64,000 bases of DNA, taken from assembly GCA_051294375.1 (NCBI GenBank), contig CM119265.1, positions 21,576,278 to 21,640,277 on the forward strand, in the 5' to 3' direction. Within the stretch, counting starts at the first letter, position 1; each line of letters begins with the position of its first letter. The translations under genes and the position numbers were made by a program. This document shows, piece by piece, positions 1 through 64,000 of the stretch. The notes under the pieces were generated by a model that was not told the DNA's origin, searched no databases, and saw nothing but the letters and a program-made list of their open reading frames with translations. The DNA is from Paraspadella gotoi (lineage: Eukaryota; Animalia; Chaetognatha).

Positions 1-1034
1 CGTCGAGGAGGCGAATCTCATCGCCACTCTCCCCGAAGGCATCGACGCCAATTCTCCTTCGACGGAGAAGCAAGTGACGTTTAACCTCGACCCGCAAACG
101 ATCCTCGTTGATCCTTCACTGCCCGCCGCGTCGACAATGGAGGGCGCACTGGTTGAGAGCAGCGCGGAAAGTGCTGGAAACGATGTCGCCGCGGGTGGGT
201 TTAATAGAATTAAGTGGGTTGTTTTGTTTAAAAATTTAATTAGTAGCTAATTAGTAGCTAATTAGCTAATTATCACTATATTTTCGTAAAAATCTTTTTA
301 ATGATAATTAAAATAAGAATTTTTTCTTTAAACTTTTCAGATGTTAAGTTGGACGCTGAGGACTCTAGCGTCTACTCCAGTGTCTACGCTGAAGAAGAGA
401 CTGATACTTGTTCGACGGTCTCGTCCATTCCGGCTGCTGAAGCTTACAGGTTAAGAAAATATGTTCGTGTCATCATTTTGCTTCCTCTTCGTGCTCATAA
501 GTTCATTCAGTTCTTACTCTAAATACATTTTTTTAAAGGCCCGAATATATTGAGTACATTTTCGACAAGAAGCCCGGCGTGGCAATTTTGGAACCCATCG
601 CCGAATGCTCTTCCGACGTATCCCTCACGTCACAAAGCAGCTCCATCTCCTCAAAGCCTCAGTCCTTTCCTGCCGTCTCCTCCAAAGCCCACCGGCGCTT
701 CAGCGTATCAAACCTCGGCTCCGTCGAGGAAAGACTAGAGGAACGACTCGAGGAAATGGACAAAAGCGTCTCCATGGAAACGCTCTCCGTGCGAGAGGCG
801 AATTCTATCGACGCTGCCGCATCCGACTCGAGCCCTCCGACAACAGAGCTCGACACCGGGACGCCGATATCGTCGTCGACGGCCGTCGTCGTCACTGCGA
901 GCGAGTTGGAGACGCTGGACGACGCCGCCAACGCCATCGAGAAGATCGCCACGGAGATAGAGGGCGGAACGGAGACTGAAGGGGAAGGAAATCTCGAAAA
1001 GATTCTTAAAGGATTTTTAGATCGAAACGCTTGA
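1..1034 (+). CDS. 3' part of an unidentified acidic Ser/Thr/Glu-rich low-complexity protein (exons <1-194, 341-449, 539-1034)
   Basis: Three GC-rich blocks joined by GT-AG introns with consistent phases (G|AT=D, AG|G=R); open frame ends ...KILKGFLDRNA* at 1034, followed by ATTAAA near 1062. No recognisable domain. Confidence 0.7.
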
Positions 1035-1194
1035 TTCAATTGTCTTCAATTTATTTTACATATTAAATGTATGTACATTGCCATTAACTTTACCTTTGGC
1101 TAATAATTTGAGTCTGTTTTTCGTTAATCCAGAATTCGTGTAATTGAAAAGAAGTTTCTGCCGGTCGTGAATGACGCGCCTGTACAGTGACGCC

Positions 1195-3876
1195 ATGGAT
1201 TACACGGAGCATCCCCGCCACCGCCCCAATCCAAACCGGGGGGGCGCGCGGCCCGATTTCCGTCGATTCCACGAGTCGGCCATGAGAGGCGCGCCTTTTC
1301 GCAACGGCTCCCTCCGCCTCCCGATGAGAGGCCAGGGGCCGTTAAACGACGTTATGTTCTCTCCGTTAGCTCCGATGCCGCCGCTCCCTCCGATGGCTCT
1401 GCCTCCGATAGGTAGGACCCAAAAATAGCAAAAGGAAAACAAAATTATACTCTTTTGCTCATTTTATTTTTCCTTTGACTCAGCCAACGGTCATCACCTC
1501 ATCGTCCCTCACAATGGGCCGCTCCTCTCGCCCCCGCCGCGCCCCCGCATGAGCGTGACCAAGGGAGAGTGGATTCCTCTTACCAAGTTAGGCCGACTCG
1601 TCAAGGAGATGAAGATCAAGAGTCTGGAGGAGGTCTTCCTCTACGACCTCCCGATACTAGAGCCAGAGATCTTCGAGCACTTTCTGGGCATCACAATCAA
1701 GGAAGAGGTGCTGGCTGTCGTCCCGACAGACAAGACGCTGCCAACAGGAGAAAGATGCGTCCGGTTCAAGGCGCTGGCCGTAGCGGGAGACAGCAACGGA
1801 CACGTCGGGCTCGGGGTTCAGATATCGAAGGAAGTAGCCGTCGCCATTGCGGGTTTGTGGTTTAGTTTTTCTTAGGTTTTTTTTTTTGTTTTGTTTGTTT
1901 GTTTGTTTGCTTGATTTGATTTTTAATTAGCCGGATTGAAAGAAAAGTATGCGAAAATTAAGTGCGCTCTATTGTATTTGTCATCATTCGTCATCATTTG
2001 TTTTCTTTTTTGCGTCAAAGGAGCAAGCCTGGCGGCCAAGCTGAACATCATCCCTATTCGACGTGGGTTTTGGAGTCGCCCTCAAGCTCTCAACAACCAG
2101 ATGGTCGACCGCCCCCATACTCTCCCGAGAAAAGTAAATGGCGCCTTCGGTAGTGTCACCGTTCGTCTCGTCCCGGCGCCGAGAGCTTCGGGCTGTGGAT
2201 CAGCCCCGCCCGTGGCTCAGAGGTTTAAAAATGCGGCGATCACAGGCGTTGTCATTGAAGAATTTTTAGACAAGCCCCTTTTCTTCTAGAATTCTGTCTT
2301 TGGCTGGTGTGGAAGATGCCTACTTTATAAGCCACGGACCTACATTAGATTTGGGTTTTCTGTGCAAAGCAACGCTCAACGCTCTTAGGGAGACTTTTTC
2401 CTATTTTCAAGTAGGTGCTACTTATATTTCTCATTCGTATGTACGTAGTTGAGATTGTCGGTATGTTATGTTCTCGATAGGAAGAAGTATTTAACATCAC
2501 TCGAGCTTCGCAAAACGTGATTCCTGATTTGCTTCACGGCGGCGCCACCATTGAAGCCATGCTGCACCAAATTGACCTCGACAATAACAGCGGAGCAATG
2601 TTCAACCACAACCGATTTCCCTTCGCCCCGCACGGAACGGGGGCGCCGCAGGGGCTTGAAAACGAAAGGAAAAATGGCGAGTGTTTTTATGTTCAAAATA
2701 ATTTTCGATGTCATCGGTTGGGAACCCATATCCTTCTTATATTTCGGCTCTTTAATCCCAATATCCAGATATAGGCGAGCCATCACCAAATGGTGATCCT
2801 CTAAATTATTTTATTTAAATTTTCTTATTTTAATAATATTAATTTTTTTAGTAATTTCTAATTATATTATTATTATTATTACTACTATTATTAATATCAT
2901 TATTGTTATTAATTTTTTTTTTAATTCATTTTTAAAATTTATTATATCATTTTTATTTATTTTCTTTTTCTTTTTTCTCTTTATGCGATTGGTTTTAAGA
3001 TTTTAGTAATGTGTGACGTCCCCTTTCGTCCATTCCAATTTCGATTTTGCTTTACTGAGTCGAGTACTATCTTCTCGGTGCTCAGTCAATCGCCGTCTCA
3101 TCGAAGCTCAGATACACCGCGACCTGGGGCTTAACCTCAACCACCCCGACATCCGATTCGACGCAGGCGTTTTCCCCTTGCCCGTCATGCACGGTCTCGG
3201 GCATAAGCCGGCCAAGTTCGTACCGTCAAGGTGAGAGGGCTTTTGTTTTATTCTCGATTTCGCTATAATTCGTTTACTACATGGTGTTCACAGCAAACGA
3301 GGGCCACAGTTAGCGCCGATCCCGACACGGAAGCGTTCATTGATTCCTATTGTGGCGCCTCCGCCAGAAGACGCTGTCGTCGGCGCTGGGGGTGACGGCG
3401 GCGGGGACGTGGTGCACGAGGAAGTGGACGCTGACGATGACGCTCACAAGGGGATCGGGTTGGATAACGGGGCTACTCGTGAGTTAATTCTTCCTTGTCA
3501 TATTTTTATATTAGCCATTAACTAATAACCATTAGCCATTAACACTATTTTAGAAATTCATACTTCTAGTTCTATGACCGTTCCTTTCTCATTTATTTTC
3601 ACTTCCTACTCTTTTCTTTTCTCAGCTCTTGAAGTGTGCCTTTCTCTGCGTCCCCGTCCGACTCAAGCGGATCACGAGGCTTCGGCCGTGGAGGATTGCG
3701 AGAGCACGGCCTGGCGCATTTTGGCGCCGGCGTTCGTGCCACGGCGCCAGAATCCGCAAGATCAGTCGGGAGACGCCCCTTTTACGGAGGTCTTGATAAA
3801 TGAGGGGGGCGTTGAAATCGTGGATCCTGCCGTCCAGAGGCTCGTCGATGAGTCTGCTTCGACCAATTGTGACTAG
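1195..3876 (+). CDS. Divergent 40S ribosomal protein uS5/RPS2-like protein with long C-terminal extension (exons 1195-1411, 1484-1852, 2021-2222, 2290-2410, 2481-2676, possibly 2769-2792, 3086-3230, 3294-3478, 3626-3876)
   Basis: Spliced translation gives [30 protein letters not shown]...[18 protein letters not shown]...[27 protein letters not shown]...[24 protein letters not shown]...LAGVEDAY...[13 protein letters not shown], colinear with eukaryotic RPS2; start in gccATGg context; no stop after the uS5 core, phases remain consistent to TAG at 3876. Confidence 0.85.
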
Positions 3877-4773
3877 AGATGTCATACGGTTATATTTTCA
3901 GGTTTCGTTTTCATCTCGTGACAGACTCGAGTGTTAGAGGAGACTTTTCGGAGACGTAGAAATGAATAATAATTAAGAGCTAATTAATTCAATCCTCCTC
4001 CTTTCCAATGAAATATTTATCTCTCGTTGTCGCTTTATTTATGCATATTGTTTGCATATTGTTATTTAGAGTTATTCTTGTTGATTTTTCCTTCACAACT
4101 GATTTCTACGCAGGTTACTTTTTTCGCTTATGGAATATGGTATGGATGTTTCGTGACTATTTTGAATCGGATAGATCGAGAGGTCGATCGTTCTTAAATT
4201 TGACAACATTGCATTGAGTGAAATCTTCAAATTGTAGATAGCACCATCCTCTGAATTACAAGGTATTAAATATATCTCAAATTTTTTTATCTTGCCAGAC
4301 GGGCGAATGCCCGTCTTGGGCGAGGATGTTAATTCGTTTCTGCTTCTTTTGACCGTAGTCGTCTCTGTCGTCGTCACGCTGTTTTAACATTGAAAATTTA
4401 TTCAAGTGTGTAACCATAGCCATAGGCTTAGGAAGCTGAAAATTTAAATATGTCTTCTCATCATGGAGGTCTTTTAAATTGTTGTTTCATATTCTTACAC
4501 TCGTTTGTTTGTTATATTTACAGCGGCTGTCCAGTTTCTCTCTTTTTCTCTCTCTCTTTTAATTATATTATATTATATATATTGTATTAACTATGATTTC
4601 TACTTTATCTTACAATTGTCTAAAAATTAAAATGATAATCTATGAACCAGATAATGTTCTTCAATTATGTTTTTATGACTTTTTTATTTTAATTATATTT
4701 TTTACTGTTTTCCCGGTGATGGTATCTTGTCATAAACCGCTAAATTTGGACCAGGATCTTTAAAACTAATTAG

Positions 4774-4860
4774 TTGCCCCGCGAGTACTCGCGGAGACAC
4801 TCGCTTTTCCGTTGGTCTGTCCGTCGGTATGTCTGTCCATCGGTCTGTCCCACTAACATT
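4774..4860 (+). repeat. Dispersed hairpin + (CCGT/CTGT)n element, Helentron/DINE-1-like non-autonomous repeat
   Basis: Palindrome CCGCGAGTACTCGCGG (4779-4794) followed by ...GGTCTGTCCGTCGGTATGTCTGTCC; same layout as copies at 8597, 13568 and 21366. Confidence 0.5.
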
Positions 4861-6246
4861 AAAAATGCATATAATTCGACTATAATTCGTTGCTCATTTG
4901 TTAAGACAGGGAAAAACCTCAAATCTCAGGAACTGCTAGCGCCGCCTTTAGTAAATATTAAAACTATAAGAAATAAAAGACTCAATGCAGTGCATGTCAT
5001 AAATACAAGGGCTAAGAAAGTTTTTGTCATATTATGTTATGTCATATCATGTAATCAAAGGGAAATACACGTAAAAATAAAGTCATTGCGGCGCAACACA
5101 TTGGAATTACTGTTTTTTGTTTTTTTTTAATACTAAGAAACGGGCACTTAAAATTTAATTTTTTTTTATTTTAAAAATTGAGTTCAACTTTATTAGTTCA
5201 TAGTATATCTAATTCTATTAACAAATTTATGCAACTCTTTATCCTGAGTATTTATTGAGTACTATCTACCCTTACTCACTTAGTCGATTTTTGCGACGCA
5301 ATTGAAGTCATAAAAAGATTTTCGCCCCCCTTTTGAGATTCTTTCTTCCCAGCAACGGCCCCGATTTAGGGCTATTGAATTTGGCTGTTGCTTTTCTTGA
5401 ATCGACGCCGTCGAAATTCTTGCGAAGTCCTCTCTTAACGCATTTAATCAAGTTAAAAACGAGTTTTCATGACAAAGTCAAGCGTTTGCTGTCTGATTTA
5501 GTCATCGTTTGATTCAAATACCGCTGCGATAAACTCGTGACGCCGACCTATTTTTTTCCTTGTACCTTGCGTAGTCTCAAGACTAAAGGGCGGTGATTCG
5601 GTCGCGGAAGCTCTGTTGTATTCCTACTCGCGCAATGTTCGCCTAAAACCCTGCGAACTATATTTTTCTATCGAATTTTCGTCAAGACACTATTCGTTTT
5701 AGCGATTCTCCTATCTTCTCAAAGATTTTCTTCGTCTTAATAGTTAAAATTTTCGAAACATAAACGAATTTAAAGCGTTTAAACTCTGGAAATGGCCCCA
5801 TGGCTGCTCCGCGCATCTACCTCAAAGCTTCGTTAGCCTTGTTTATTTCGTTGCAACTCGCTGTGAAAGGTTGGTTCCAGCGCCCGTTTGGCAATGAATC
5901 TGTTCAAATGTTGTTTGCCTAACTGTAATTTCGATTGCGTATGCCGTTTTCTTTATTCATATCGTATAATGATAATAATGTATTATAAGTATATAGGTCG
6001 TGTCTCATAAGAACGTTTCCGGATGTCGTCCGTTACCATGCGATGCCTATTTTATCCGGGTCTTTCTTTAATCCTGAAGGAAACCGGGTCATCGGTTACT
6101 ATGTATATTCACTTTGTATGAGTGATTTTTCAAAATGTTATGAACGTTATTAAAGATTTAAATAACTTGGTGTGGTAATAATCAGTCCATAACGAATAAT
6201 GATGGATTTGCGGGATAGATTTTTTTTTTTTAATATTCTGCATGTA

Positions 6247-7134
6247 CAGTGTGTCCCAATGGTACTGTCTGTTAAGAAAAGCTTACTGCTCATATACCAG
6301 ATCAAAAAACTTTAATTCATTATAATGAATATGCGCACAAGTATGGACCATTTTATAGGATACCTAAATTTTAAAAATTGAACAAAGCAAACTCCTGTAT
6401 TTATTACATGAAGCAAATGGTATAAAAATTTTTTCAGTGATTTTTAAAAAAAAAATAATAGCAACCATTTTGTTCATGCTTAATGATTCAATCGCCCACA
6501 ACTTCAAATAATAAAATTTAAATATTAAATTAATTAGCATATTTTAATAAACTTTCATATTTTTTTTAATGTTTATTTCTTTTTATTATTGTACTTATTT
6601 TTTACAAATTACAATTTAAATAATTGATATCTTATGGTGGACTAAAATCCACCAACCGTTCATCAGCGGCCATTGGTGCCGGAGGCAAGTCATTCGCCTC
6701 CCAACCCAAAGGTCCGGGGTTCTAGCCCGGTGGTCGTCTGGCAGTTAAGAGGGACGGGGCGCTTAACCCGCCTGTAACATGGTGTTACAGCCTGATCCGA
6801 AGCTCAGGGACTGCTTATATTGAACGGTTCTGTCACTAACATATAACAATAATCACTGTCTCTTCAATCTATTTAAAATATTTTTTTACATAATTTTTTT
6901 TAATAAAATTTATTTTAAAGTAAAAAAAATTATCTAAAAATTAAAAAAGTGAGAAATGAGGACACATTTAAATTGAATGTTCTGCAAAGAAAAATTGATA
7001 AAAATTGAATTTGAAATATAGTATCATAAATGGTAAGAACTTATCTTTGACATTGTTATCTCAAAAATAACATTTTATAACACAGTTCTGTACAATATGT
7101 AAAAGTTAACCGACAATACCATTGGGACACACTG
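6247..7134. mobile_element. Non-autonomous Tc1/mariner-type element (MITE-like), 888 bp
   Basis: 29-bp terminal inverted repeats CAGTGTGTCCCAATGGTACTGTCTGTTAA / TTAACCGACAATACCATTGGGACACACTG (2 mismatches), flanked by TA on both sides; no transposase ORF. Confidence 0.9.
6666..6852 (+). mobile_element. tRNA-derived SINE nested in the TIR element
   Basis: GC-rich island with A-box-like TGGTGCCGGAGG and B-box-like GGTTCTAGCCC at tRNA spacing, unique body, and A-rich tail ATAACAATAA. Confidence 0.65.
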
Positions 7135-7477
7135 TAGTATAGTTTTGTAAATCGCTCTTGCCAGTTTTTATAACATTTTTGCAGATAAAAACAACAGCAC
7201 ATACCGCGAAATAATTCCCGATAGGTTGTTTACTATGTTTAGTATGCAATTTAGTATTTATATGCTTTAAATTTAAACCTTTCTAAATAATTTTCAATTT
7301 AAATTAATCAAAGTGTAATGTTATTTTAATCAAGGCCAACGAATGACATACGGAAGGTCAAATAAATTTAAATTGAATGTTGATTAAATGTTTAAACGGA
7401 TTTGAGATAAAATGATAATTCACAAAATTAAAAGTAAGAAAGCGGTGAAGTTGAACTAACAATTTATGGACTTTTTA

Positions 7478-8035
7478 CAGGCTTCATATTATAAAATGAG
7501 GTACCTATTTTTTGTGACCAGAACATGTTTCGAGAAAACTACTGGACCAAATTTATTAAAATCTGGTATGAATTTTTTTAATTATTTTTGTTTTGAACAG
7601 TTGCATAGACGTTTACTCTTCCACAAAAACGTATTTATTACCACAAAAATATTAGTTTACCTTAATTTTAAGCTACATGAACATCAGCAGTTCAAGTCAG
7701 ATGAACCATGCATTTCCATCAATGCTTAATTCACGAAAATTTATCAATTTTTGTTCTAAATTTCTTTTTTTTTGTCAATGTACCTGATGCTACTAAAAAA
7801 AATTTTATATTATAAAAAAAATATTTTTAGCTTTTTTGGACCCCCAGGGGTCCACCCCCAGGGCCCTGTATCTCTTGTCAGGGGTTGAATATCAAAATTC
7901 GCCTCGATAGTTCCATTTATATTGTCATTAGAACTCAAAATGTAAAATTTCATTAAATTCGATCGGGTAGTTTGGTTGGAACAGATTCTGGTCACAAAAA
8001 AAAGGGTACCTCATTTTATAATATGAAGCCTTCTG
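7478..8035. mobile_element. Second non-autonomous TIR element (~560 bp)
   Basis: AGGCTTCATATTATAAAATGAGGTACC...TTTTTTGTGACCAGAA at 7479-7523 is mirrored by TTCTGGTCACAAAAAAAAGGGTACCTCATTTTATAATATGAAGCCT at 7986-8031; TACAG...CTGTA outer ends. Confidence 0.85.
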
Positions 8036-8213
8036 TATTAAAATTTTTATACGGAGATTCTAATCATTCTACAGGGTAGTTATTCAAAACTTCGAAAATC
8101 AGTATCACTTAATTCTTTTTTTATTTTGAGACGAATCACGTACGTTAAAATAAAAAAAATCATTTGAAGATAATTAACCAGACCTTGTTTTAATTATGTA
8201 TGCAATGCGATAA

Positions 8214-8582
8214 GCACTGTTGGAAAAACCATTCCTGCCACAGCACCCAAAAAAATCACAGCTGCTCTTCATAAACACTTTTGAAAGATTGAGTTATAGC
8301 TCAGAGACGGTTTACCCTAGGCTATCAATATTTTTGTTATAAGTCATATGGGTCCCTACCTTTCAAACGCCCAATTTAGCAAAGTTAAAGGGAATTTGAT
8401 ATGGATAATAGCCAGAAAGCCAGAAAATCCTTAAGTCAAAAATTAAAATGTTGCTGCATCTGAAATCATTTTTTTCAGCTGTAAACAATAAAGCCAATAG
8501 AGCCATACATATTAAACCTAAGAGTATTGGCTCTTCATAAATGACAGTAGTAGACTGCAGCAATGGTTTTTCACCCAATAGC
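8214..8582. mobile_element. Possible old MITE with degenerate TIRs
   Basis: GAAAAACCATTCCTGC at ~8223 vs GCAGCAATGGTTTTTC at ~8557; imperfect, no clear target-site duplication. Confidence 0.35.
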
Positions 8583-8596
8583 AAAAAATTTTTTTT

Positions 8597-9060
8597 GTCG
8601 GATCTGCTTATCAGCAGATTCCGACTCTATAATGCAATCCGTCGGTCCCCCCCTAAATCTTGTCGGGCACTCAAATCATGTCAGAACATCGAATTATAAT
8701 AAATTGTGCCAAAAAATGTCCGTCCGTCCGTCTTTCTGAAGGTCCGTCCCACCTTTTCATTAAACTCCAATTACTCGTTATTGGATGGATAGATTGGATT
8801 GAAATTATGTGTGTGGGTAGGAAACTGTATGATTGAGCTGGATATAATGTTTCGATGGAATCGTGCGAGTGGAAATGAGTTTAAATGAAAAAAAAACAAA
8901 ACAAAAGTAATATTTACTCATAAGTATTTTTACTCATAATTATTATATTGATTAAAAATTAGATAAATAAATTGGAAAGAAATTTTGTGTGTGGGTAGGA
9001 AAGTATGTGGTTAAGCTGGATATAAATTTTTGATGGAATCGTAGTAGTGGAAAGTGGATT
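8597..9060 (+). repeat. Dispersed hairpin + (CCGT)n element, homologous to 21366-21600
   Basis: Hairpin GTCGGATCTGCT-TATC-AGCAGATTCCGAC then TCTATAAT; AAATCTTGTCG...TCATGTCAGAACATC...AAATT...TGTCCGTCCGTC...GAAATT.TGTGTGTGGGT shared with the 21.4 kb copy; internal ~75-bp block repeated at 8801 and 8979. Confidence 0.8.
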
Positions 9061-9138
9061 AAATTATAAAACCAAAAGATATATTTATTTGAATTTTTAA
9101 AAGTTTCTCTCTCTCTCTTTGATTGATTGATTGATTGA

Positions 9139-9323
9139 TTGACCAAAATATGCCAGTTGACCAAATTATTCAAGTTGAGCTAATTATGCCGGTTGAACAA
9201 ATTATAATAGTTGAGCAAATTATTCCAGTTGAGCAAATTATTCCAGTTGAGCAAGTTATTCCAGTTGAGCAAATTATTCCAGTTGAGAAAATTATGCCAG
9301 TTGAGAAAATTATGCCAGTTGAC
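9139..9323. repeat. 18-bp tandem minisatellite (~10 units, CCAGTTGAGCAAATTATT)
   Basis: Directly visible tandem units; produces the spurious IIPVEQ-repeat ORF. Confidence 0.95.
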
Positions 9324-11901
9324 CGGGGGTTGGCAAAAGTTAAGTTTTTTAAATATGTAATGAAAATGATTTTTTTATTTTTAAAACACAATTTTCACTA
9401 CGCCTGGATACTGGATAGTGGGTACTGGATAGTGGATAGTGGGTACGCGTCACTTTTAATCTCATATTATATGATATCGAGTACTTTTAATCTAGTAGAG
9501 ATATAAAATAAATAGATATTTTCTTTTAAACAGTACCCTGCTATTTATCATGGTACAAATAAAACTTTTAGGTAAAATATATTAAATGTAAAAAATTACT
9601 CGTTTTAATCAATCTGATTTGAGAGCCCTCAATATCGAAAAACATAAAAATTGGAAAACCTGTATGCGCTCGTCATTCGCTATTGTGTCTGGTTCTTTGA
9701 GAGGAGAATACTGTAATTAATAATTATGAAATTTATAGAATAGAAAACTAAACTTTTTATGTATCAGGTTTTTTTAACAGTACAGTACATAAAATTTATA
9801 TCGTAGCTGAAAAAAAATCACCTTTATTGTGAGACGAGTTATAAAATCTTTCATAGATTTTTACCTCTCCAGCATTATAGGCTTGGGCGATATGTAAATG
9901 TGCAAGTATGTTAATATGGATTCTTGTTACCAATTTTTTCATCTTAATTGATTAATAAATTGGTATCATCGCTTTAATTAATTATTTTCATAGCATCAAT
10001 AATTCGTTATCGTATCTATAAACCATCGCATTATTAAATTATTATCATTACTTTATTAAAATTTAAATTCTTCTAATCGAATTTTTATCAGCATATCAAA
10101 TTGTTACCGCAGGATTGAATCATCATCATCATCACATCAATAAATAGTTATTATCGCAGCAATGAATAAATTATTGAATCAATTTATCATTCGTTTCTTT
10201 AAGAATTTCTTTTCATCTAACCAATTTCTTATCAATATATCAATATATCATTGTAATTCTATCAATAAAATAATAAGGATTTTTTGATACAATGGTAATC
10301 ATCGTATCATTGAATCGTTATTTTTTTGGATTGACGATTTTGAATTAACGTTATTGTTTTCATAGTAATTTTTGATGGGGAGATATTTATAAATTTAACT
10401 TTTTTTACTCGTGAAACCATTTTCTGTTTTTTAACACTGATAAAGGAACCCAAACGAAAGCTAACGGGTGTTCTTTTGTTCTCACAACGATTCTTTCTCG
10501 GTTGTAAGGCAACTAAAACAAAATGTATTTTTGTATTTTTCTTTTTATTGAATGATAATTTTTTTTAATTGCAAGACAAATGTTTTGAAAAAATCCTCTG
10601 AGTTATATGATTGTATTTAGAAAAGAGGTTGTGTGTTAATGAAAGCTAAATTGAAAAAAATTTCATTTAAATTAAATATCTCGATTTATATTTTATTAAT
10701 TAGCTTTCATTCATTCTTGTAGTATTGAAATACTATAAGTACTATAATTACGATAAGGTACCGTGGAAATCATATTGCTACACGTGACGAGCTTAATCTA
10801 ATCTAATCATTTTCCTTTTCCTCCCCATATATCCTCCTTTTTTGGCTGATATTCATTTTGCTTCTTAATCAGGTAAGTTTTTTCGACTTTTTGATGTGAT
10901 ATCTAAGATCGACCAAAAACTATTATTATATAGAATTAGAAATTTTTTATGTTAATAATCGGTGAACCTCGTGTAATCAATAAAAATTATTTATTTATAA
11001 AAAGTTACATGTTACTAAAATTGCCCAAATTATAGGATGAATTTTAGGCTAAAATTTTTTGATTAAAAGTCTAAAAAATGATTTATTTTTAACATTTTCA
11101 ATGTATAAATTAATTATTTAGACTAGCTGAAAATTTTATTAAAGCTCAATCTTATTAATGACTTTAAAATTTAAGGAAGTCTATATTGACAAACAATACA
11201 TTACGTATACCGATTTATTTTAGTCTGAAAACCTGACAATTACTTTTGAGTTCTGAGCTCAAGAAGGGGAAAAAACGTTTCGTGTGGTTTTAAGTCGAAG
11301 GATTCAACTCCCTTCGTTGAACATTGGTACACGGAAAGAGAAAACCACCGGGAAGCTGCAGCGCAGTAAGGGAGAAAAAAAATAGAGAGAGAGAGAGAAA
11401 GGGGCAAAAATCCCTCAAAGAAAAAACTGATTGACCAAAAGGCTTCGTATTGATTGATTAAAAGATAAAAATTATAGAATTAGTTTTTTGGTTCTGTTAC
11501 ATTTCTCCTGGTAAGTTAAAACTATAAAACTAATGCTGAATATATTATGCGATTAAAACTGATGAAAGTACCGAAGATTAAACATTTCTACTCATTAAAC
11601 CGCTTGATATAATTTATTTTTAGCTTCTCTAATTTGTTCTTCTTAAAAGACATGTATTTTTATGAGCATCAAAGTTATGTGCCAGTCCGATGCTTCCTGT
11701 TCGATGATAACTCTCTCCTCTTTTTCATTTTTTCCCCAAAGAACCTCTTCCTCTTCTGCGTCCTCGACGTTCGTCCTCGTGCAAAGAGAGAGAGAGAATG
11801 AGAGCGAAAGAGAGGCTGACTGGATAATTAAGACCCTCTCTCTGTGTCTCATGATATACGAATTCAACTTTTTTTGGATGCATATTTTCGGGTACTAGTT
11901 T

Positions 11902-12250
11902 ATGAAAGATATCTGCCTCAAGAAACGCTCAACGACAAACGTCCGAAAAAGTCGCCGTTTTGTAATTTGTTTCGTCGTCTTTTACATCGTTTTCTGTTTT
12001 CGAGCGCGAGACGACTCCGAGACACTTGGTTTCAATCGACGACGTCCTCCTTCGCTACAAAGGTCGCAAATTATACCAAAGGATTTTGGACTATTCGTAA
12101 TCGCTCTTTCGCTCCCGCACTCTTTAATTTGTAATATTAGTTTGGCAGAGAGCAGGAAAGTCTAGTCGGACTGTCTTACATGAAAGTTTCAGCAGCGCTG
12201 GCCGCAGCGACGTGTGCCCAGGCAGCCTGGATCCAGCCTTGATATTACAT

Positions 12251-12326
<76 letters not shown>

Positions 12327-15300
12327 AGAAAAAGGGATTGAAAAAAAAATTAAATCTGGCTAACTGGCAGCCCCCTTTTTTCTCTTCAAGGTCCTTCGCG
12401 ATTTTTAAATCCCACGCCCTAAAATCTAAATCCTCTTTGCGAAAAAGATGCCGATACACCGCATAGCCCTCTTTTGAAATGAAAAAAAAAAACCACGCTT
12501 ATCCAAAGGTTTTGTTTTTCTTTTGTCGATTGTACCTTGATACGTATCGACTATCGAACCGAGCGGGTAAAGTTTGTTTTTCTCTCCGGCGTTGTCGTCG
12601 TCGTCGTCTCGATCGCCGTCTTCGTCGTCTACCGGAAATCGCAGTAGAGACAAGGCGAGAAAGAGAGACTCGCGTCTCCACGTGACGTCCTTCGCGTTAT
12701 TTCGTCCCGTGTGCGCGCGCGCGCCAATCTCGCGATCTTGGCTTTCTCGTACGTTTGTGGAAAAAAAAAATCGGCAAGCGCCCTCGCTAAATGCGTCTCG
12801 TATCGTGGGTTTTTTTTTTTTTTTTTTTTTTTTTTGTGTTTGTGTGTATGTGTTTGAAAAAAAAAAGGTTTCTTATAATCGCCGTACAAAGCTTTTGTTT
12901 ACTTTCAATGATTTATCGACAGTTACCTAAAGGTTTTGTGAGCATGAAAACGAAAAGAAAAGAACTTTTCGGAGTCTTAGCCGCATCATAATCGGTGCAA
13001 CATCGGCGACAAGATGATCAAATATTACCTCCTTGATTTCACGCGGATTATTTATATGGGTATCTTTCTTTTGGGACTGCTTCACGTGAAGCATGTAACC
13101 GGGGAAAGGTAAATAGATTACATGCATGGTCGTGAATTTTAATACTTCCATGTTCTTATGAATAAAAACGTATTGTTTCCCAGTGAAAAAAGTTCTGACG
13201 TTCATGAAACATCGCAACATAACCTTACTGCATCTAAAATTTTTCTCGATCTACGCCGTAAGTTTCGTAGTTTTTAAAAATGTATAAAAGATACTTATAA
13301 AATGTGGAAGTAAAATGTTTTTAAAAATCGGCGCAGACGCGAACCACCAGTCGCAGAAAAACCTTGGCCCGAATTCCGAGGCCGAGAAAATTGCTCTCGG
13401 AAAATGGATTTGCCTTGAGGACTGCCCCCCTGGCGGAGGTAAAGGAATTATTATCATTAATGAAGGGTGTTGGAGCTTCTCGAATAATTTTTCATGTGGT
13501 GAATGGGAAATCGCAAAATACTGATTAGGAATCATTCAAAGATTATCATACGCTTGTGTTATTTCTGAGTTACGGCTATAACCGTAACTCTATAAGACAC
13601 TTTTGTCTGTCGGTCCGTGGACATTTCTTTAAATATAGCAACATTAGAAAATAAAATTCGTTACAAAAAAATATATCCTCGTTTAAATCGAGCGTTTTCG
13701 GAGATCCAATGAGAAACTACAGTCATGTGAAAAAAAAAACAAAAAAAAAACGCGCCAGTGTATTACTATTAGAGGCAACCAGTAAAGTGGTTAAGAAATT
13801 TGAATTAAGCACCTGCTCAATGCTCAAACGAAAATTTAGACATTTATTAAAAAAATTGAATAGAATAAAAAAATTTAATATTACTCTATACCCCATATAT
13901 TAATTTTGTTATATTTATTATTAAATTGGAATAGCTAAAAAAAATTTAAAGATTTTTTTATTTTTAAGATCAGATTCAGTTTGTTTGCAAAAAGTTGTCT
14001 ACACAAAGTATAATTCTTTTTTCAATATTTTGATCATAAATGGGTAAAAAATATGAAAAACTCTTAATAAACTTCATCATATTTGATATGTTTTCTTGGT
14101 CAAAATTAAGAAAAAGTAATAAAATACTACAACTCCTGTTCATTATTTATATTTATTACTATAAAAATATTCGTGGTCCATCGATTACGAAAAAAAATAA
14201 CCCATTAACAAAATAAAAGTGTCTTTTCTAACTTATTTTATAAGGAGAATATGTTTCAACTGAATTATTCTTCGACGGAGAACCTAAAGACGCGGTGGTT
14301 TCACGTGGATCTGATGTCCTTTTCGATTGTAATCCGAAGACGATTACAGGTACTTTTAAACAAACGTTTAGTCTATGTAAATGTTCAATTTCTACTGTCT
14401 AGTCTTCAGAACATTGTCATAAATTCTTTTTTTAACCAGAATCTACGGAATCTTCAAGTGGCGCCGCCCTCTATGGCGCGAGAGATCACGTGATCCAATG
14501 GCGACGCAACGGGGCTCCCATTCGAGACGTTCTCTCAGAAACCGAGTACAGGTGGGTGGGAGTGAAAATCTATCGCATAGTCGTTGTTGTTGTTTTTGTT
14601 GTGCCGCACGTAAGTTTGAAGTAGAAAGTCTCTTTAAAACTGACTTTTGTTCCCTAGTGAATATTTGAGCAACAGACAAGACAAGCATAAGCACGAACCT
14701 CGTCCTCACTACGTGCTCTTTAATAATGGATCACTTTTGATCCACTCAGTCTCAGGTAATTACATTACAAAAAATATAAAATATTAAAATTAATTTCAGT
14801 TAATTTTTCTTCTTAATTTAAGATTTTAAAAAAATAATTGGTGTCACTGTCAGTCATGCCGCGAGTGATTAAATGCTGTTTCTAGTTAAAAAAACTTCAA
14901 ATCTCGCTCAACTCTCCACGCCTTTCCCCCGATCAGGGCGCCTCCAAGGCGACGACGCGTTGCCGGGCTCCAAAACTGCCTGGGAGTTCGAAGCCGAAGC
15001 TCGTTTAAGAACGGACCTTCTGGCTCGCCCTTCTTATCTGCAACAACTCAACTCAGGTCTGAGATGAATTTTACAGACGGGGAACGAGAAATGGAGAAAA
15101 CAGTTCTTTGGATGCGCGAATACGTACTCCATAGTTCTATATTATATGTAATTATTGTCCAAATTTACAACGACCAGATGGAAGTCGGGATCTCGGCGCC
15201 GCGGAGCCTCGAGCGCCCGTCGCCGACGTTGACGCCGGATTCTACGACTGTCTCGTCTCGGGCTTCGGCAAGACTCGACTCAGTCGACCCGCCCGTCTCC

Positions 15301-18300
15301 GGCTCCAAGGTTCGTCTCTTTCGTCAATAGCCAACGTTTTGGTAAGGGCAGAATAATAATAAAATAAATCCCCTTTTGGCCCTCATAGGTTTGGGCACTC
15401 GGTTTTTTCTGGGTCCCCATCCAGTCTTGGCCTCGCTGGGCTCCTCCGCTCGATTTTCTTGCTTGTTGGACGGAGCGCCCAGCGTCCTCTACAGATGGGA
15501 ATTAAATAGACAACCTCTACCTCTTAACGACCGTAGGCGAGTATCCGTTCTAGTATTCCACGATTTGATTTATGAAGTTATTTCCGAATGGCATGTCTTT
15601 TCTTCCTCTCTCGCATCCCCTTTGCGACCGTCGCAGATATTCGGTGTTGCCTGGCGGCGTTCTTCAAATCTCAGGTGTTGTCTCGACCGACGCCGGCCGG
15701 TACCGTTGCGTCGCCGAGTGCGGAACCCGGCGCCGCGCCGCTGCGGCTCCCAGGTTCCACCCCGACTGCAACCCCCGCCCTTCAAGCGAGGCCGTTCTCA
15801 CCCTTGTCCCAAGTAAGTCGAGGGGGCGGCGGGCCCGGTTTACGATCGAGTCGCGGATCGAAAAATTGCCCTCTCCTCAGTCCGTTGACCTTTATCCGAC
15901 TTTATTGTGCTCAATTAAATGGTTTGTTTATAACCAATCGATTTCAGTCCGAATATTATTACATCGTTTCTCGTCGTTATTCTCTTTTTAGTTGACATTT
16001 CTTTTTCTTCGTTCTCTCTCGCCACTCATTTTCTTCTCAACTCCCACTCTTTACTTAATTGAACTTCAAAATTTATTAGAGTTCGTGTTTGTTCGATTTG
16101 GAAGAGTCCAGACCCATTAACTGCGGTTTTCATTGTTTCCCTTTTTTTGTGCTTGAGCTTCAATAGAAAACGGTTTGCCAGCTGGTTGATTCGCTCTCGG
16201 ACTACTATTAGAATATTAAATTAATCCTAGAATAGAATTAAAAAATCAAAATGAGCTCGTATTTATCACATAACTTTGTTATTACGCTTCGATTCCTTGT
16301 ATGTGCATAACAACGACAAAGAAACAAGGGGAAACGTACTAGCTGAGAAACTACAATTACTAAATATTGACTCGCCCTAAAGTTAAACCCCCGAATTCTC
16401 CCCTCAACATGTGCCGTTTAAAAGAAAAAAAAGAGTTAATGTACTGTTTACGTTTAAACTCGGATACGATGCTTCTCTGGCAAACGCGCTAACGTTTTAG
16501 AAACTCTTTCCTCTCGGCAAGTCTTGTCCGTTTTATAAGTCCAAAGGGAACTTTTTCTATCTCTTTTCTTCTTTTTTTTTGGGGAAGTGAAGGGGCATCG
16601 CCCGATAGAAAACTGCAACAACGCCATTTTTCTTTCCATCTCTTCCCGACAGCGCTGCGCTTTCCCTTCCCCTCCCCTCGTTCGCACGCGATGCGCAGAA
16701 AAGCGATGCATCTCCGTACTTTGTCCGCGCGATTGAATTAAAATTAATAATTCTAGTTTAATATCTTTAGTTGCATTCATATGACTCAAAAGAAAGCTTC
16801 AATTGTTAAGCTTGCATTATTTCCGGTTGTTTTTAGAATTTTACCGGCTTGTAAGATATGAGCCGGTGAGGCAAACCAGAAAACTTAGTGAGTTTAGTAT
16901 TTTCGATTTTAGCTCGATGATATTGGTTATTTAGTATATTTGTACCGTTTGTTTCTTTCTTTTGGTTGTGTTTCTAGATGATTAACAAAAGATGATTTAC
17001 TTTTACTTTAAAAACGATATGAAATATTTTTGCGCTGATGAAGACCTACAAATAATAAGTCGAAATGTGACCGTTTATATCATAAAACATCGTTCAAGTA
17101 AAAAGAAATCTTTTTTTGTTAATCATATTTGTACTGCTTATGATTAATGAATTATTTTTCTCATGTAAGTTTATCGCATTTTTTGTCAGGATCGTCTCAA
17201 AAGGAAGAACTTTTTACGTTGGGAAACGTGACTGTTCATCAGTTCGGAGACGCGATCTTAGAATGCTTTTACACCGGAAAGGTCTGAACAACTGTTTCGT
17301 GTTGAAATATTTATTTTGTTTTCTCGCTATCTTTCTTTTCTGAAACGTATATTTTTCAAGTCGAAAAAAGTTTTCAGACGAAGCCTAATATATTTAAAGT
17401 GACATTTTAAAAATAATTTCTTTGTCGTCAGATGTTAAATTATTTTAGTGTTGAGTGTGAAAAAGGAATGTGAGGCGACTTGAAATGCTTTGAAGAATTG
17501 CGTATAACAATATTTACGAAAGATGCTTTTGTTGCATTCTTCACAGTAATGTCAAATTAAGGCGCCGTCGGCTTTTGTTCCAGTCAGACGAATTCTTCGT
17601 AGATATTTCCGCTTTTTTAAATTCTTAAACTTCCATCGCAGTCATCTGCCGTTCGATCCTACAAATGGGTCAGATTCGACGGGAAAGCGATCCGCGCCGA
17701 GGGCGTCTCCACCGTCGGTCGCGGCAATCTTCTTCTCAAGAACGCCTCCGCCGCCGGTAAGTTTTCCCCTCGTTTTCGCGTGACGAACGTTTAGTCTATT
17801 AATAGATTCTTTGATTTCCCTTTTCGCAACCGTGGATATTCGGCGGCCTTTCCATTGATTACTTTATGTCAGACAACGGGACCTACGTTTGCGTGGCAGA
17901 GTTCCACGACGGAAAAACGAGTTCGTCCATCACCGTTCTCCGCGTCCTCTTGCCGCCCGTACTCAGGGAACTCCCGATGTCCTCGAAGCAGAGTCTCGCC
18001 TACACTGCCCGATTCTCATGTCCCATCGAAAAGGTGTTTGGAGAGAAGGGGTACATAGGGTGAGGGCGCTGTGTGGCGATGACTAGTGATAATTTCGATG
18101 CTTCTGTTTATTACAGGGTTATCCAGAACCTTCGATTATTTGGCTTCACAACGGAAAGGCGATAACCATAACTGGGCGTTACAAGGTACTATATATATAT
18201 GCGTTTTATTTCGAATTCAAGGTTTTCTGATACCATCATTAATAGCAACGTATATATCGACCTAAGTAGTTAATTGTTCTTGTATGATAATGCCGCTTTG

Positions 18301-21300
18301 GTATAAACCTTTCTTTTTTTCAATCAGCAACTGAAAAAGTGGGATTTACTGATCGCGCAAACGGAACTCGCCGACGAAGGCATCTATCAGTGCATATTGG
18401 AAAACGAGGCCGGTGTTACTTCGGCGGCCGCTAGGCTCGTCATAACTTGGGACGAAAGTAAGTGATGACGTCACCTCTTCAATATCAAGGAACCTATTTT
18501 CACACTTTTCCTTACATTTCAGGCGTAGCACCCAGCACCCCTACCAACGTCGTCGCCAAAGCAGTCTCCTCGACCGCCATCCGAGTGACATGGAACGCCT
18601 CTAAATCCAAAGTTGGACCACTTCTGGCCTACTCTGTTCACTACTATCCCACCAACGGTAATTTCGTCGCTGTCCGATTCTTCTCTTCTTTTTTTTCGTC
18701 GCCTCCTTTACCCTTTCCCTTCCTTCATCTCCCCCACGGCTTTACCCAGGCGGAAGAGAGAACAACGCCGTGAGCCAACCTACCTCTTTTTTGGCGGAGG
18801 GTCTGCGACCCTTCACCAATTACTCCCTCTACGTGCAATCCTATGTGAGCAAGAGCGCGAGCCTCAAGTCAACCGTCGTCACGTGCGTCACGGGGGAAGA
18901 CGTTCCCCTGGGCGCGCCGAGGGCGAGGGTCGAAGAGAGGGTGAGTTGCGGTGAAGGGTGTGTGAAGTTACGTATCAAGGAGAGGGAGATTAAAAAGCGT
19001 TTTTTACGTAGCGATGCTTACATGCATTTTTTCCTCAAATTCATCATTTTGTCCCTTTTCTTTTTTCGCGTTAGACATCGGTCTGGTTTTTGGACCGAAA
19101 ATGACAGGCGGGTGCTGGTTAGTAGTTTTTTCTCCGTTATATCTCTTCAGACGTATTTCGATGCAGTTTAGATTGTTGCTAATTAAATCCAAAAAAACTT
19201 TTTATCTAATTTAGCCTTAATTGTACATAATTCAGTAATTTAAAAACAAAATATGATTTAATAATATGAGCCAAGTATTATTATTATTATTATTCGAGAT
19301 TAAACTAAAATGAATAAAGCTTTTAAAAGGCGACGAGTTATTTCGATCGATTGGTTCTCGTTAAATTTTTTCACGAGTCAAACATTTCTCCCCTCCTGAG
19401 ATTCTCAATTCTTGGTTATTTTTTTTTTATTTTAGGGATCTACCCAGTTGTCCATTTCCTGGTCCCTTCTCTCGCGCACGCGAGCTCAAGGAGTCATCGT
19501 GATCCACCGCGTCTTTTACCGTTCGCGCGGGCAACAAGCCCAACGTTACGTGGACGTCGGCGGAAACGAAACGGAGGTTGCGATCTCCGACTTGAAACCA
19601 AAATCCAAGTGAGATACTAAACGAACATAATTGCTCTAAAAATTATTCAAGAAAAATTACATTCTTAATTAAAACGCTATCATCCTCTTATCAAGATATG
19701 ACGTTCGCGTTTTGGCGGGAACCAAGCTGGGATTTCCGAACCTGGACGATTCCCAATGGCCTTGGGTCACTGTCAGAACCGGAGACGTTGCTCGTGACGA
19801 TATTCCCGTCGCGCCCAAAGTGCAGGTGGTTAGACGTCAAAATTCAACACCGTAATTAACTAAGTTCGACAGTTTTCTTATTCTTGATTTTCTTTTCAGC
19901 TACTTCTCATCAACTCGACCTCGGTTTTCCTTTTCTGGGCAAAGACAACTCCTCATCGACCCCTTCATTTAAAGAGTAAGTTCTCGACTATTAAGTAATA
20001 AAATGAGGATTGAGGAATCTTTCTGAAAAGTCGATTGGAATTTCTTTAACCTCGTTTTCGGCAGCCAAATCTTCTTCTTCGACTCTTCCTCCTTCCGCTG
20101 AAAATCGGGGCTTTCGCCTTTCAACTCGACTCCTCGGGTCGTCGACGGAGTCGTCCATCACGTTGCCCTTCGACTCGGACCGTCATCTCTTCCACAACTT
20201 AAGTAAGAATGGCCCGAACGATCTTTTACATCATTTGAAACGAAGTACTATGTACTGAAATTTGGGTCGTTGACAACCTCTTTTTTTTTTTCTTTTTTTT
20301 TATCAGCGCCGTCTTCGAACTACGAACTGCGCCTGTGGTCTTTTCGAGAATCCGTCGAGAGCGAGAAGACGATTAGACGAGTTTTGATTCCCGACGTCGT
20401 CTTCCAACGCTTCGACTCCGTCGACGATCGTCTTTGGGTGAGCGACCTCGGTCCATCGCCGATTTAATTAATTATTTACTTTATTTATTTTTGAGGATGT
20501 TTTCTTCTTTCGATATTTAGCCCGCCCTGGTGCCGCCTCTCATTGCGAACGCCGAGTCGAAGGAGGCGACTTCGGTTCTTCTTTCTTTGTCTTCGCTTTG
20601 GTTTTCGTCTTTCGCCTCCGACGCCAAGATGATTCTTTCCTCGGAGGCGGTTCCTCTCAACGAGACGGACGATCGCCGACATTATCGGGTTAGGCTTTCG
20701 TCGCCGCTAACGCCGGCTGTCGCTGTCTCCACATTTACAATTATGTTGCCTGCCCGTTCCAGTTATTCTTCACGGTTCGATACGCTCAACTCGACTACAC
20801 TCGCGCCGGCGGCTCCGGAGTAATTTCTGCTTCGTCGTGGCGCTCGGTAGACGTGACAGCGCCATCCATTCGCGTCGACGGGTTGAAGCCCTTCACCCAA
20901 TACCGCTTTTCGGCGCGGGCTTCTCTCAAGAGTCTCTCCCGGCAAAAGCGGAGCGCCCACGCCGCATCAGACTCCGTCGTTGAAGGACCGTTCGGCGTCG
21001 CCGTCGATGTTCAAACGTTGGAGGATCTCCCCGACGCTCCCAGGCAGTTCACCGCAAGGATGTACCGATGCGTCGGTGAGTAGGGAGAGAGAGGTTCGTC
21101 CGGCATTCTCTCGGAGTGCCACTTTGGGACATTTACGGACCTACTAGTTTTCAAGAATTTAGGACATTTTTATATTTGCCGGCTCAGGCGAAACTCGGAG
21201 CTGTAAAGTGAGCGTAAAATTGGACTGGATCGTCTCCAAAAATCGCAATGGAAGAATCTCCTACCTGATCAAATACCGAAAGACGGATGTCGAACGCCGT

Positions 21301-24300
21301 CCGCCGCCACAAAAAGTCCCGCCTCCTAAAAGTAAGAGAAAGAAGGAGAAAAAGAAAACGAGAGAGACGGGAGATCCCGGCTCTATAATTCACTTTGTCG
21401 GTTTCACCCCAAAATCTTGTCGTTAAGTCATGTCAGAACATCAAATTATGATAAATTATGCAAAAAAACCAATGTCCGTCCGTCGGTCTGTCCGTCCGTC
21501 GGTCACACCTTAGCTTTCATCGCCAATTACTTATCAGTTTATAGGACGATTGACTTGAAATTTTGTGTGTGGGTTAAAATATCCGAGTGGAAACGAGTTT
21601 ACATGGGAAAAATTAAAAACCTGTTTCACCATTTTAATTATGCTTTTTATCGTCGCAATCGCTTTGCGTTTGCGACGATTTTGCTGTGGTTTTGCACATA
21701 AGTGGCGTCGTCGTCGGAGTTCCAATTTATAAATCGCCTTTTTCATGATTAAATTTGGGTGTATGAAGCTAAAAATTTTTATACAGCTTCTCATCATCGA
21801 GGTCCTTGAAATTGGGTGAGGACAGTTGTTAAATATGTTTTATTACCTTTTATCAAAACAAACAAATTTTTTTACGTCTCCTTCTCTCTCTCTTTTCTCT
21901 TTTATTTATATGTAGCTCTCTCTTTTCCCCATTGAGATTCATCGGGGAAAAAACGAGTCTGCAGCTGGCTCTGCAGGGGCTTTTTCTCTTTTCTCTTGCT
22001 GCTTCTGCTGCTGCCTTTTGATTTCTTTCTTTTTTTTCTGGCTGCTGCTGCCGCTGCTGATTCGTCCGAAAACAATTTGGCTTTCTATTCTTTCTTTCCC
22101 TTCTATTCTTTCTTTCCCTTCTATTCTTTCTTTCCTTTCTTTTCTTTCTACTCTTTCTTTTCTTTCCTTTCTATTCTTTCTTTTCTTTCTACTCTTTCTT
22201 TCCTTTCTATTCTTTCTTTATATTTATTCTTTTCTTCTTTTTCTTTCTGTCTTCTTTTCTCAAATTTGATTTTTTTTAGTATCAAAATTTGTCGTCAATC
22301 CAGATTTTTCTTATGCAATTGCGACGATCCTTATTTAAGCTGCATAAATTAATTAATTTATTTATTAATTAATTGATGGGCTGCATACCACTAATGATCT
22401 TGAACATTTACATACTTAAATATAAGAAAGAAAAAAATATAAAAGCATCAATAATTAATTATCTGATTACCGCTAATGATCGTTTTTCCTTCGTCCCAGT
22501 GTCTCAAGGCGGAATCGTCAACGCCGGATTCAGTCGTCACAATGACTTGGTCGCGCTCACGCCCGATCGAGATGTCAAGTGGGAGTCGAAACGCGTCTCT
22601 GGCTTCATCCCGGCGACGGTCATCGAGGGTCTCGAGGTGGGGATTTCCTCGCCGTCTTTAATTCTAGAATTTTAAAATAAAACCTTACATATGTATTTGT
22701 TTTCATATTCCAGCCCAACCAATACTATGAGTTCGTCATCTTCGCTTCCAACTCAGCAGGGGAATCCTCGCCTCTCTCCGAAGTCATTTTGACCAACTGC
22801 GTCGGATGCACGACTTCGTCAACATCCGGTAGAGATGACGGACACATATTTTAAAAAAGGAGCCGAAAAGACCAACTCTCCCTCCCCCATATTTCATCTC
22901 AGAACCCGCTCCGGATATTGGCGATGATATATTGATCCTGCATCCCTCTTTGCCGTCACCGCCTCCTCGCCAACACGGCCAAGAGATGGGAGTCGCCATC
23001 GGGATTTCAATCGGCCTCTGCTGCATAGCTGTCTGCGTCATCCTTTTCCTTTGTCGCAACAGGTCGGCGTTTATTATAAAGTGGGGGGGTTTTATGACGC
23101 TGCTGTTTAATTGTTCTGTTTGAATTTAATTTAGATGTTTTCCATCTCCACTACCTCCGGGATTTTACTCGCGCCCGATGCATCCTCCATATAATCACTG
23201 TGCTTATTGGGAGCCGCCGATTCAGCTCCATCCACACGGAAACTCTGTCACTTATCCATTTTTGTTAGGCGAGTATTTGTTTTTTAGTTTAATTTATATA
23301 AGTAGAAATGATTAAATTCTTACATATTTTTATCTAATATTACATACATTATGCTATTTTCTGTATTTCCTCAGACGGGTTTCAATTGCACCCTCGTCTC
23401 ACGACTCAACAACTCGCTTCATTCTACAACGACGGGCTGACGGGCTATTGCGCTTCTTCGGGCGCCGAGAGAGGCCTCCGAAGTGCCGATGAGGCCGGCG
23501 AAGGCGACGAGAGCAACGGAAGCAGCGGTGTTGGCGGCGATGGCGCCGAGGGAAACGCCATGGCGATGGGTGAGGCGGAGACGTCTTTGGCGTCGGGTTG
23601 TCTTCGGAGGAGAAGTGGTAAGATCAAGGGTCTTTTCTTTATCTTTGTCAAGGTTTAATCCGCGTTTAATTTGTCCGCAGGGATCGAGTCTGACGTCAGA
23701 TGCTGCGGGCGTTCGCCTCCGAAGCGTTGGTCTCTTTTAGCCTCTTGGCTAAGGTGAGGCATTTTTTTCAAATGTTCATTATCTTCCCGAACTTATTTTG
23801 CCTGCTTTTATTCGCTCTCTCTTCTTAAGAACACCTCTTTATTATCCAATCACGTTAAAATCAACCTAAGATCTCGGTTACACAAAAAGAAGCAACTTAT
23901 TTTTCGCTTTTATATTAAATGTCTTATAAACATAATGTTTTTGTCGCGTAAGAAAGTAAGAAATTTCTAGTTTGCCAGAGGAGCGTGCCAACTAAAATCA
24001 ATAATCCGATTTCTTTATTTTTCTTTTTCGTTCTCTCTGGTACTGAGCCAAGAATAGCGATTCTTTATTTATTTCTAACGAGAACTTTGACTAGACTTTA
24101 TTTTAATATCGTCAATTTAAATCATTTTTTACTTTTTTTTGTGAATCGTCTCAGTTTTGCATTATTGGATAGTTAATTTATAGTTTTATTTTTCTTTCGC
24201 TCTCCTTTGTGTCTCTCGCATTGTGCCTTCTCTCTTCAAATAGGCGGGGACCCTTAATTTTTTTTACGTTTTTATCCTCTTCCATCAGCAGCTGTTTCTC

Positions 24301-31048: not shown

Positions 31049-31137
<89 letters not shown>

Positions 31138-63776: not shown

Positions 63777-64000
63777 ACAGTTGTGAATTTTTTTCGGGGG
63801 TGTATCGGAGGTGTGATGGGGTAGAAAATGACGCGTGCGGGTCAAAGACGGTGCCATGGAACGAAGGGGCGGGAGTGAAGAACAAAAAGCGGAAACGATT
63901 AACACAAAACATTTTCCGTTACGAATTCTGGGCTTTTTCCCAAAGTTTCTGTTAAAACACGAAAAAAAAACATGCATCTTCCGTCTTTTTGATTCTGCGG

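Follow-up and report, generated by a model that had tools for sequence, protein, structure and literature searches.

A diverged uS5 (RPS2)-like protein with a long C-terminal tail and a remodelled hairpin: a possible ribosomal-like adaptor

Introduction

uS5 (RPS2), among the most conserved eukaryotic proteins, gives the mRNA entry channel its shape and influences how accurately translation proceeds. In a stretch of 64,000 nucleotides (the whole DNA analysed here, called the window), one gene encodes a protein that carries a uS5 core, a changed hairpin within that core and a long additional C-terminus. The question is whether such a gene is a damaged copy, the ordinary uS5 of its animal, or a paralog with another task. 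Ribosomal protein paralogs, both of the placeholder and of the tissue-specific kind, are already known, and so are duplicated ribosomal genes in chaetognaths.

Results

Gene structure and transcript

The uS5-like gene was read on the + strand as a frame of 561 amino acids, from the ATG at 1195 to the TAG at 3874-3876, which stays open after exon joining; uS5 pieces had been seen in frame 1102 of a six-frame reading of the window. The transcript evidence comes from the public run X1, presumed to be RNA and maybe the source of the window itself, which held 56% of the sampled window words. A 1987-nt X1 contig spans 1133-4106 and joins all seven introns (1412-1483, 1853-2020, 2223-2289, 2411-2480, 2677-3085, 3231-3293 and 3479-3625), and its five listed pieces show no letter differences from the window. 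Six of the seven introns end in GT..AG and one, after a 1-base shift, in GC..AG. The features are as follows.

1-1100, + strand: 3' part of the upstream gene, with an acidic, low-complexity, Ser/Thr-rich C-terminus (transcript contig of 3269 nt)
1119-1132, + strand: pyrimidine-rich tract and AG acceptor (1131-1132), likely a trans-splice site (transcript start in one contig)
1133-1194, + strand: 5' UTR (X1 contig); the protein would be 8 aa longer if it began at an upstream in-frame ATG (1171)
1195-1411, + strand: exon 1, Pro/Arg/Met-rich N-terminal region without RG repeats or FG motif
1484-1852, + strand: exon 2, N-terminal helical subdomain and S5 N-domain, PF00333 (contig, Pfam, PDB alignment)
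1714-1761, + strand: remodelled loop-2 hairpin (aa 150-165) within exon 2, net charge -1, 10 of 17 near-invariant columns changed
2021-2222, + strand: exon 3, linker with a 7-residue insertion (2074-2121), then the start of the S5 C-domain
2290-2410, + strand: exon 4, S5 C-domain, with a loop at 2324-2362 carrying T224F, T232D and N235F (mammalian numbering)
2481-2676, + strand: exon 5, diverged uS5 C-tail and beginning of the extension
2677-3085, + strand: GC-AG intron of 409 nt (contig joint 2675>3085, shifted by 1 base)
3086-3230, + strand: exon 6, carrying conserved block A
3294-3478, + strand: exon 7
3626-4106, + strand: exon 8, with blocks C and D, the stop codon TAG at 3874-3876 and a 3' UTR to about 4106

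The original prediction, which was made from the letters alone, had claimed a complete uS5 core followed by in-phase exons past the usual end of RPS2. This agrees with the contig-joined frame, in which the core takes up aa ~100-303; the spliced contig runs through the extension and does not stop after the core. The seven spliced introns, the open 561-aa frame and the conserved relatives described below rule out a processed pseudogene of RPS2, and the gene is an open one, as had been proposed. The X1 contig depth was 477 for the uS5-like gene and 291 for the upstream gene, a depth that cannot rank genes. Runs X2 and X3 gave no real cover of the uS5-like gene, with one 32-nt piece, and this is no proof of absence. 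Intron 5 contains a short element (2708-2816) that is matched by several unrelated X1 contigs and is likely a dispersed repeat. Rfam gave no match in positions 1-12000 of the window.

At the 5' end of the X1 contig, nine non-genomic bases (TTGTTTAAA) precede position 1133, as seen in this one contig. Table 3 of PMC2481426 gives 26 forms of the chaetognath spliced leader, and 25 of them end in the same 9-mer. These nine bases in one contig make it likely that the host is a chaetognath (arrow worm). A cis-spliced source was rejected, the sole upstream copy in the window (224-232) being intronic and followed by AA. Between the end of the upstream gene's contig (1100) and the leader acceptor there are about 32 nt, a gap of operon-like size. 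Because of the nine leader-matching bases and the gap of ~32 nt after the upstream transcript, the uS5-like gene is likely operonic and trans-spliced, with the upstream gene as its likely operon partner; the 3' part of that gene (1-1100) had no Pfam match. In the sequenced chaetognath nearly half of the genes are trans-spliced and 18% lie in operons, and most germline markers belong to these genes, according to the available text of PMC12460157; the term RPS2 is absent from three supplementary PDFs of that paper.

The uS5 core

Exon 2 alone reaches 46.3 bits for PF00333 (cut-off 27.1), and the uS5 likeness is therefore not due to chance. PF03719 spans exons 3 and 4, which scored 12.8 and 20.7 bits when taken separately (cut-off 21.5), and three relatives gave 57.9-59.2 bits for PF00333 and 31.3-36.9 bits for PF03719 (cut-off 21.5). 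Pfam found nothing in exons 1 and 5-8. When exon 2 was compared with PDB, all 60 matches shown were cytosolic uS5, which rules out an identity as mitochondrial uS5m.

The uS5 fold is predicted to be kept. In a first prediction with a 9-row alignment the mean pLDDT was 33.5. In the AF2 model of the relative P0003, pLDDT mostly exceeds 85 in the uS5 core, and the linker insertion has low confidence; the alignment used for the model held 92 canonical rows and so biases it towards the uS5 fold. With this model, all 50 listed Foldseek matches were ribosome-structure chains at 39-53% identity, with E values of ~1e-25 and rmsd mostly 2-2.5 A.

The protein resembles eukaryotic uS5/RPS2 (PF00333 plus PF03719) in its domain order, predicted fold and N-terminal helical subdomain, and in keeping two thirds of the near-invariant columns. 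It differs in several ways: core identity is 49-57%, the hairpin is acidic, the linker holds 7 additional aa, the RG/FG N-tail is missing, the C-terminus is longer by about 235 residues and the introns sit elsewhere. The near-invariant columns are the 99 that are at least 95% invariant across 94 canonical eukaryotic uS5 rows; four canonical rows without the anchor motif (P0040, P0050, P0059 and P0106) were left out of the column counts. All four family proteins keep 66 of these columns and all four have changed 26, with 23 of the 26 changes going to one common residue. The changes are concentrated in the hairpin (10/17 columns, compared with 16/82 elsewhere; Fisher p=0.002, the columns not being independent), while the N-terminal helical subdomain keeps 15 of its 16 invariant columns. 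Near-invariant Gly and Pro positions are kept at 23 of 25, and Lys and Arg at 14 of 19.

The hairpin motif (1726-1770) has a one-residue insertion relative to canonical uS5 in the alignment, and its net charge is -1 instead of the canonical +1 to +3. The altered basic loop of the original prediction is thus recovered as an acidic hairpin, and the expanded linker as the insertion in exon 3. Outside the hairpin, T224F, T232D, N235F, K142Q and R152A also fall at positions that are at least 95% invariant in the 94 eukaryotic uS5s. The core net charge is +3/+4 in the family, compared with +13 to +22 in the 94 canonical rows. It had also been suggested that the protein binds RNA through its dsRBD-like domain, and this claim is weakened because the hairpin has turned negative and the core has lost about 13 net positive charges. 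On the other side, basic residues were not lost selectively (5/19 Lys/Arg positions changed, compared with 10/34 hydrophobic ones), so continued rRNA binding would fit; R166, R167, K183, R194 and R200 are kept in the family. We take the hairpin to be the counterpart of bacterial uS5 loop 2, and T224, T232 and N235, which are replaced by F, D and F in the window protein, presumably face rRNA in 30S/40S structures. Bacterial uS5 loop 2 is described as adjoining helix 34 and tuning decoding (PMC12713390). Human uS5 contacts 18S rRNA via both domains and touches eS21, uS2, uS8, uS4 and uS3, according to PMC10216425.

The terminal regions

The N-terminal part of the window protein (~105 aa) is 21% Pro and holds no GRG and no FG. 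It fits the original prediction in that the RGG tail has given way to an Arg/Pro-rich region, here rich in Pro, Arg and Met. The FxxxFG motif occurs in none of the four family proteins compared with 36 of 86 canonical ones, and the median number of GRG is 0 compared with 6; isolated FG is present in the relatives P0002 and P0127. The RG/FG-rich N-tail of uS5 is reported as the PDCD2/Tsr4 chaperone site (PMC10216425).

Counted from the first core Trp, the window protein is 460 aa long, compared with a median of 224.5 (maximum 246) in 88 canonical uS5s. An extension of ~270 residues had been predicted; the long tail is real, with 258 aa (aa 304-561), and only ~235 aa are extra when compared with the canonical protein. 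In the AF2 model of P0003, block A forms a moderately confident helix and pLDDT is mostly below 50 beyond it, which predicts disorder for most of the tail. Four blocks stand out in it.

3088-3132, + strand: block A (aa 370-384), conserved, predicted helix
3217-3366, + strand: block B (aa 413-441), across intron 6, basic and Pro-rich, 25 of 29 positions invariant in four proteins
3634-3657, + strand: block C, LxLRPR
3712-3741, + strand: block D, WxxLxPxF

Block B has a KR-x9-RKR pattern in all four proteins, which resembles a bipartite NLS. Blocks A-D matched no Pfam family and the tail no Atlas cluster, and an Atlas query with core plus tail returned only uS5 clusters, at 0.82. Short binding motifs typically show up as conserved islands within disordered chains, and we infer that the tail blocks act as such motifs. 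Block C resembles, in our reading, an eIF4B/eIF4H motif; its pattern had 0 occurrences in the literature text searched for this likeness. A PAM2 identity is weak for block D, which lacks the LNxxAxEFxP consensus given for this PABP-binding motif (PMC7356810); a relaxed pattern occurs in two of the four proteins and there was no Pfam PAM2 match.

Relatives and rate of change

In a search with exon 2, P0001-P0003 (476-652 aa, on contigs of 1.6-2.4 kb) were 91-94% identical, compared with 54-63% for the other 117 listed proteins, and their clusters hold 5, 3 and 2 members. Between the window protein and P0001, P0002 and P0127, identity is 84.8-91.7% in the core and 38.6-43.6% in the tail. The window core is 49.2-57.4% identical to the 94 canonical rows, and by comparison a mammalian-type uS5 shows 70.8-94.8% identity with the others. 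A search with the tail alone found just P0001, P0002 and P0127 (3 of 1844 candidates). Among shorter proteins it found 0 of 334, in a search that was insensitive since the tail fragment P0121 exists and yet went unfound. With HMMER over 1.84 billion representatives, the best 150 listed matches began with two full-length members, after which the score fell from 954 to 235 bits. The genomic fragment P0174 has the same exon-3 limits as the window gene, and the 30 metagenome loci all looked canonical, none of them matching past model aa 333.

A tree of 42 of the 98 rows joined the four family proteins into one group (support 100/100), whose stem measures 2.57 changes per column (1.56+1.01) and whose tips measure at most 0.15. 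The family attached beside animal-type rows, an attachment which is unreliable because the stem is so long. All four proteins agree at 164 of 204 core positions and at 59 of 258 tail positions. Judged from the sequences, the family first changed rapidly, in a burst, and was strongly conserved thereafter; its core appears constant but different and under purifying selection. A quarter of the invariant positions changed in one burst and then froze, and the family thereby reveals which surfaces of uS5 can be repurposed.

Origin of the gene

In canonical intron-bearing loci (among L009-L026) the alignment breaks near model aa 131, 167, 233 and 288, while the core introns of the window gene lie at codons 196, 263 and 304. 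Because none of the four canonical intron sites is common to the window gene, retroposition is possible; the pattern fits a retrocopy with later intron gain, or general intron turnover in the lineage. The earlier argument that an intron-rich gene cannot be a processed copy therefore stands only in part: the gene is spliced and open, but its non-canonical core intron sites fit an old retrocopy that gained introns later.

No second uS5 was found within the 64-kb window. Table 1 of PMC2020476 includes an S2 EST from a chaetognath, 190 aa long and complete apart from its N-end. This EST cannot encode the window protein, because the last 190 aa of the latter hold no uS5 sequence, and an EST of that length which lacks only its N-end indirectly implies a short-tailed uS5 in chaetognaths. 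The window gene is likely a second copy beside a normal uS5. The other reading, in which the window gene is the sole uS5 of a fast-evolving animal, agrees with the single uS5 in the window and is very improbable, given the stasis after the burst instead of steady fast change, the short-tailed S2 EST in a chaetognath, and the lack of any core net charge below +13 among 94 canonical uS5s.

Discussion

We favour the reading that the uS5-like protein is not an ordinary uS5 and works as a ribosomal-like adaptor off the translating ribosome, to which we give a probability of roughly 0.45. A duplication, possibly by retroposition, would have freed the uS5 copy, which would then have replaced the surfaces with which uS5 holds the central junction of 18S and lines the mRNA entry channel. 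The unchanged N-terminal helical subdomain and linker may still bind uS2, eS21 and uS8, or a pre-40S or stored 40S particle. The tail blocks may recruit effectors or import receptors, as the added C-terminal domain of Rlp24 recruits the ATPase Drg1 (PMC5425277). The placeholder paralogs Rlp24/eL24, Mrt4/uL10, Rlp7/uL30 and Imp3/uS4 are similar in being ribosomal protein paralogs with the core kept. Placeholder factors of the Rlp24/Mrt4 type are ancient and widespread, unlike the window family, which was found in only three clusters plus fragments. The available text of the placeholder-paralog review gives none for uS5 (PMC5425277). If the window protein is not in ribosomes, it would represent a ribosomal-like uS5 factor specific to its lineage.

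The main rival explanation, which seems to us less probable than the adaptor, makes the protein a genuine subunit of a germline 40S that is specialised or dormant, such as that of the oocyte ribosome with class II rRNA. In this case the acidic hairpin would change how mRNA enters or how faithfully it is read, or would silence stored ribosomes, and the tail would be a docking arm on the solvent side. The retention of near-invariant Lys/Arg and Gly/Pro positions and the fold, predicted to be intact, suit such a subunit, and uS5 lies on the solvent side, where there is steric room for long tails (PMC10216425). Two classes of rRNA exist in chaetognaths, with one 18S class oocyte-specific according to PMC2020476, and the dominance of operonic and trans-spliced genes among germline markers (PMC12460157) points the same way. 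There is also a precedent in Drosophila eRpL22-like, another lineage-specific diverged copy of a ribosomal protein. It has been shown in polysomes (PMC6743460), while the window protein is known from sequence, and the changes in the latter strike invariant residues of a core decoding-related protein. The collapse of the net core charge, the substitutions at residues that are at least 95% invariant (T224F, T232D, N235F, K142Q, R152A and those of the hairpin) and the loss of the chaperone-binding N-tail all argue against a working subunit. So do the known chaetognath small-subunit isoform pairs, which are far closer to each other (72-99% identity, Table 3 of PMC2020476). The members of a published pair also differ in length by no more than a few residues, and the text covered names no S2 that is diverged or extended. 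These duplicated isoforms (PMC2020476, PMC2481426) otherwise resemble the window gene in being likely from the same phylum, trans-spliced and maybe part of the same duplication burst.

A more specific form of this explanation seems unlikely to us: arrow worms would have a second type of 40S, probably the oocyte one with class II rRNA, in which uS5 is replaced by the window protein, the acidic entry-channel hairpin repels or re-registers mRNA and the tail recruits regulators. Should a second subunit exist, the exchange of a core decoding protein would turn a ribosome off or retune it, and the phylum's long-proposed two-ribosome system would have a protein marker. If it is true that the window protein enters ribosomes, it would offer a direct test of the old idea of two chaetognath ribosome types.

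Rather improbable is a recycling of the uS5 fold for a non-ribosomal role, in which the protein would touch neither ribosomal proteins nor pre-40S and could, for example, be a scaffold in the nucleus or cytoplasm. The very long stem branch, the whole-protein pI of 6.6 and the invariant NLS-like block in the tail are consistent with it. They are opposed by the eukaryote-type N-terminal helical subdomain and the RRGxW linker, which are almost untouched, so that old partners still being bound is the easier account, as the ribosomal-like adaptor would have it.

No description of an extended, hairpin-altered uS5 paralog was found in the literature covered, which took in few subscription papers and included the available parts of chaetognath work (PMC2020476, PMC2566580, PMC2481426, PMC12460157). 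Such a paralog appears to be undescribed.

Neighbouring sequence

The window holds several further genes. An Ig plus fibronectin-III receptor gene, perhaps protogenin/DCC-like, lies at about 14000-26000 on the + strand, with a likely transmembrane segment near 23000. On the - strand, a hydrophobic, multi-pass-looking ORF (30301-31000) and a Thr-rich, mucin-like ORF (30960-31649) gave no meaningful Pfam match. An exon of an amiloride-sensitive channel (DEG/ENaC, PF00858) is found at 53283-53639 on the + strand, and 3' exons of a dynein heavy chain (Pfam Dynein_heavy, AAA_lid_11, Dynein_C), presumably of axonemal type, at about 57800-64000 on the - strand. Inverted near-duplicates with 89-92% identity pair 40053-46336 with 59803-53556, 46673-49890 with 53275-50141, and 35562-37160 with 38877-37336. 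They flank the N gaps at 37311-37335 and 50116-50140 and include the dynein 3' end and the ASC channel gene. One copy looks frame-damaged, and the pairs may either be true inverted duplications or have arisen as fold-back artefacts of the assembly.
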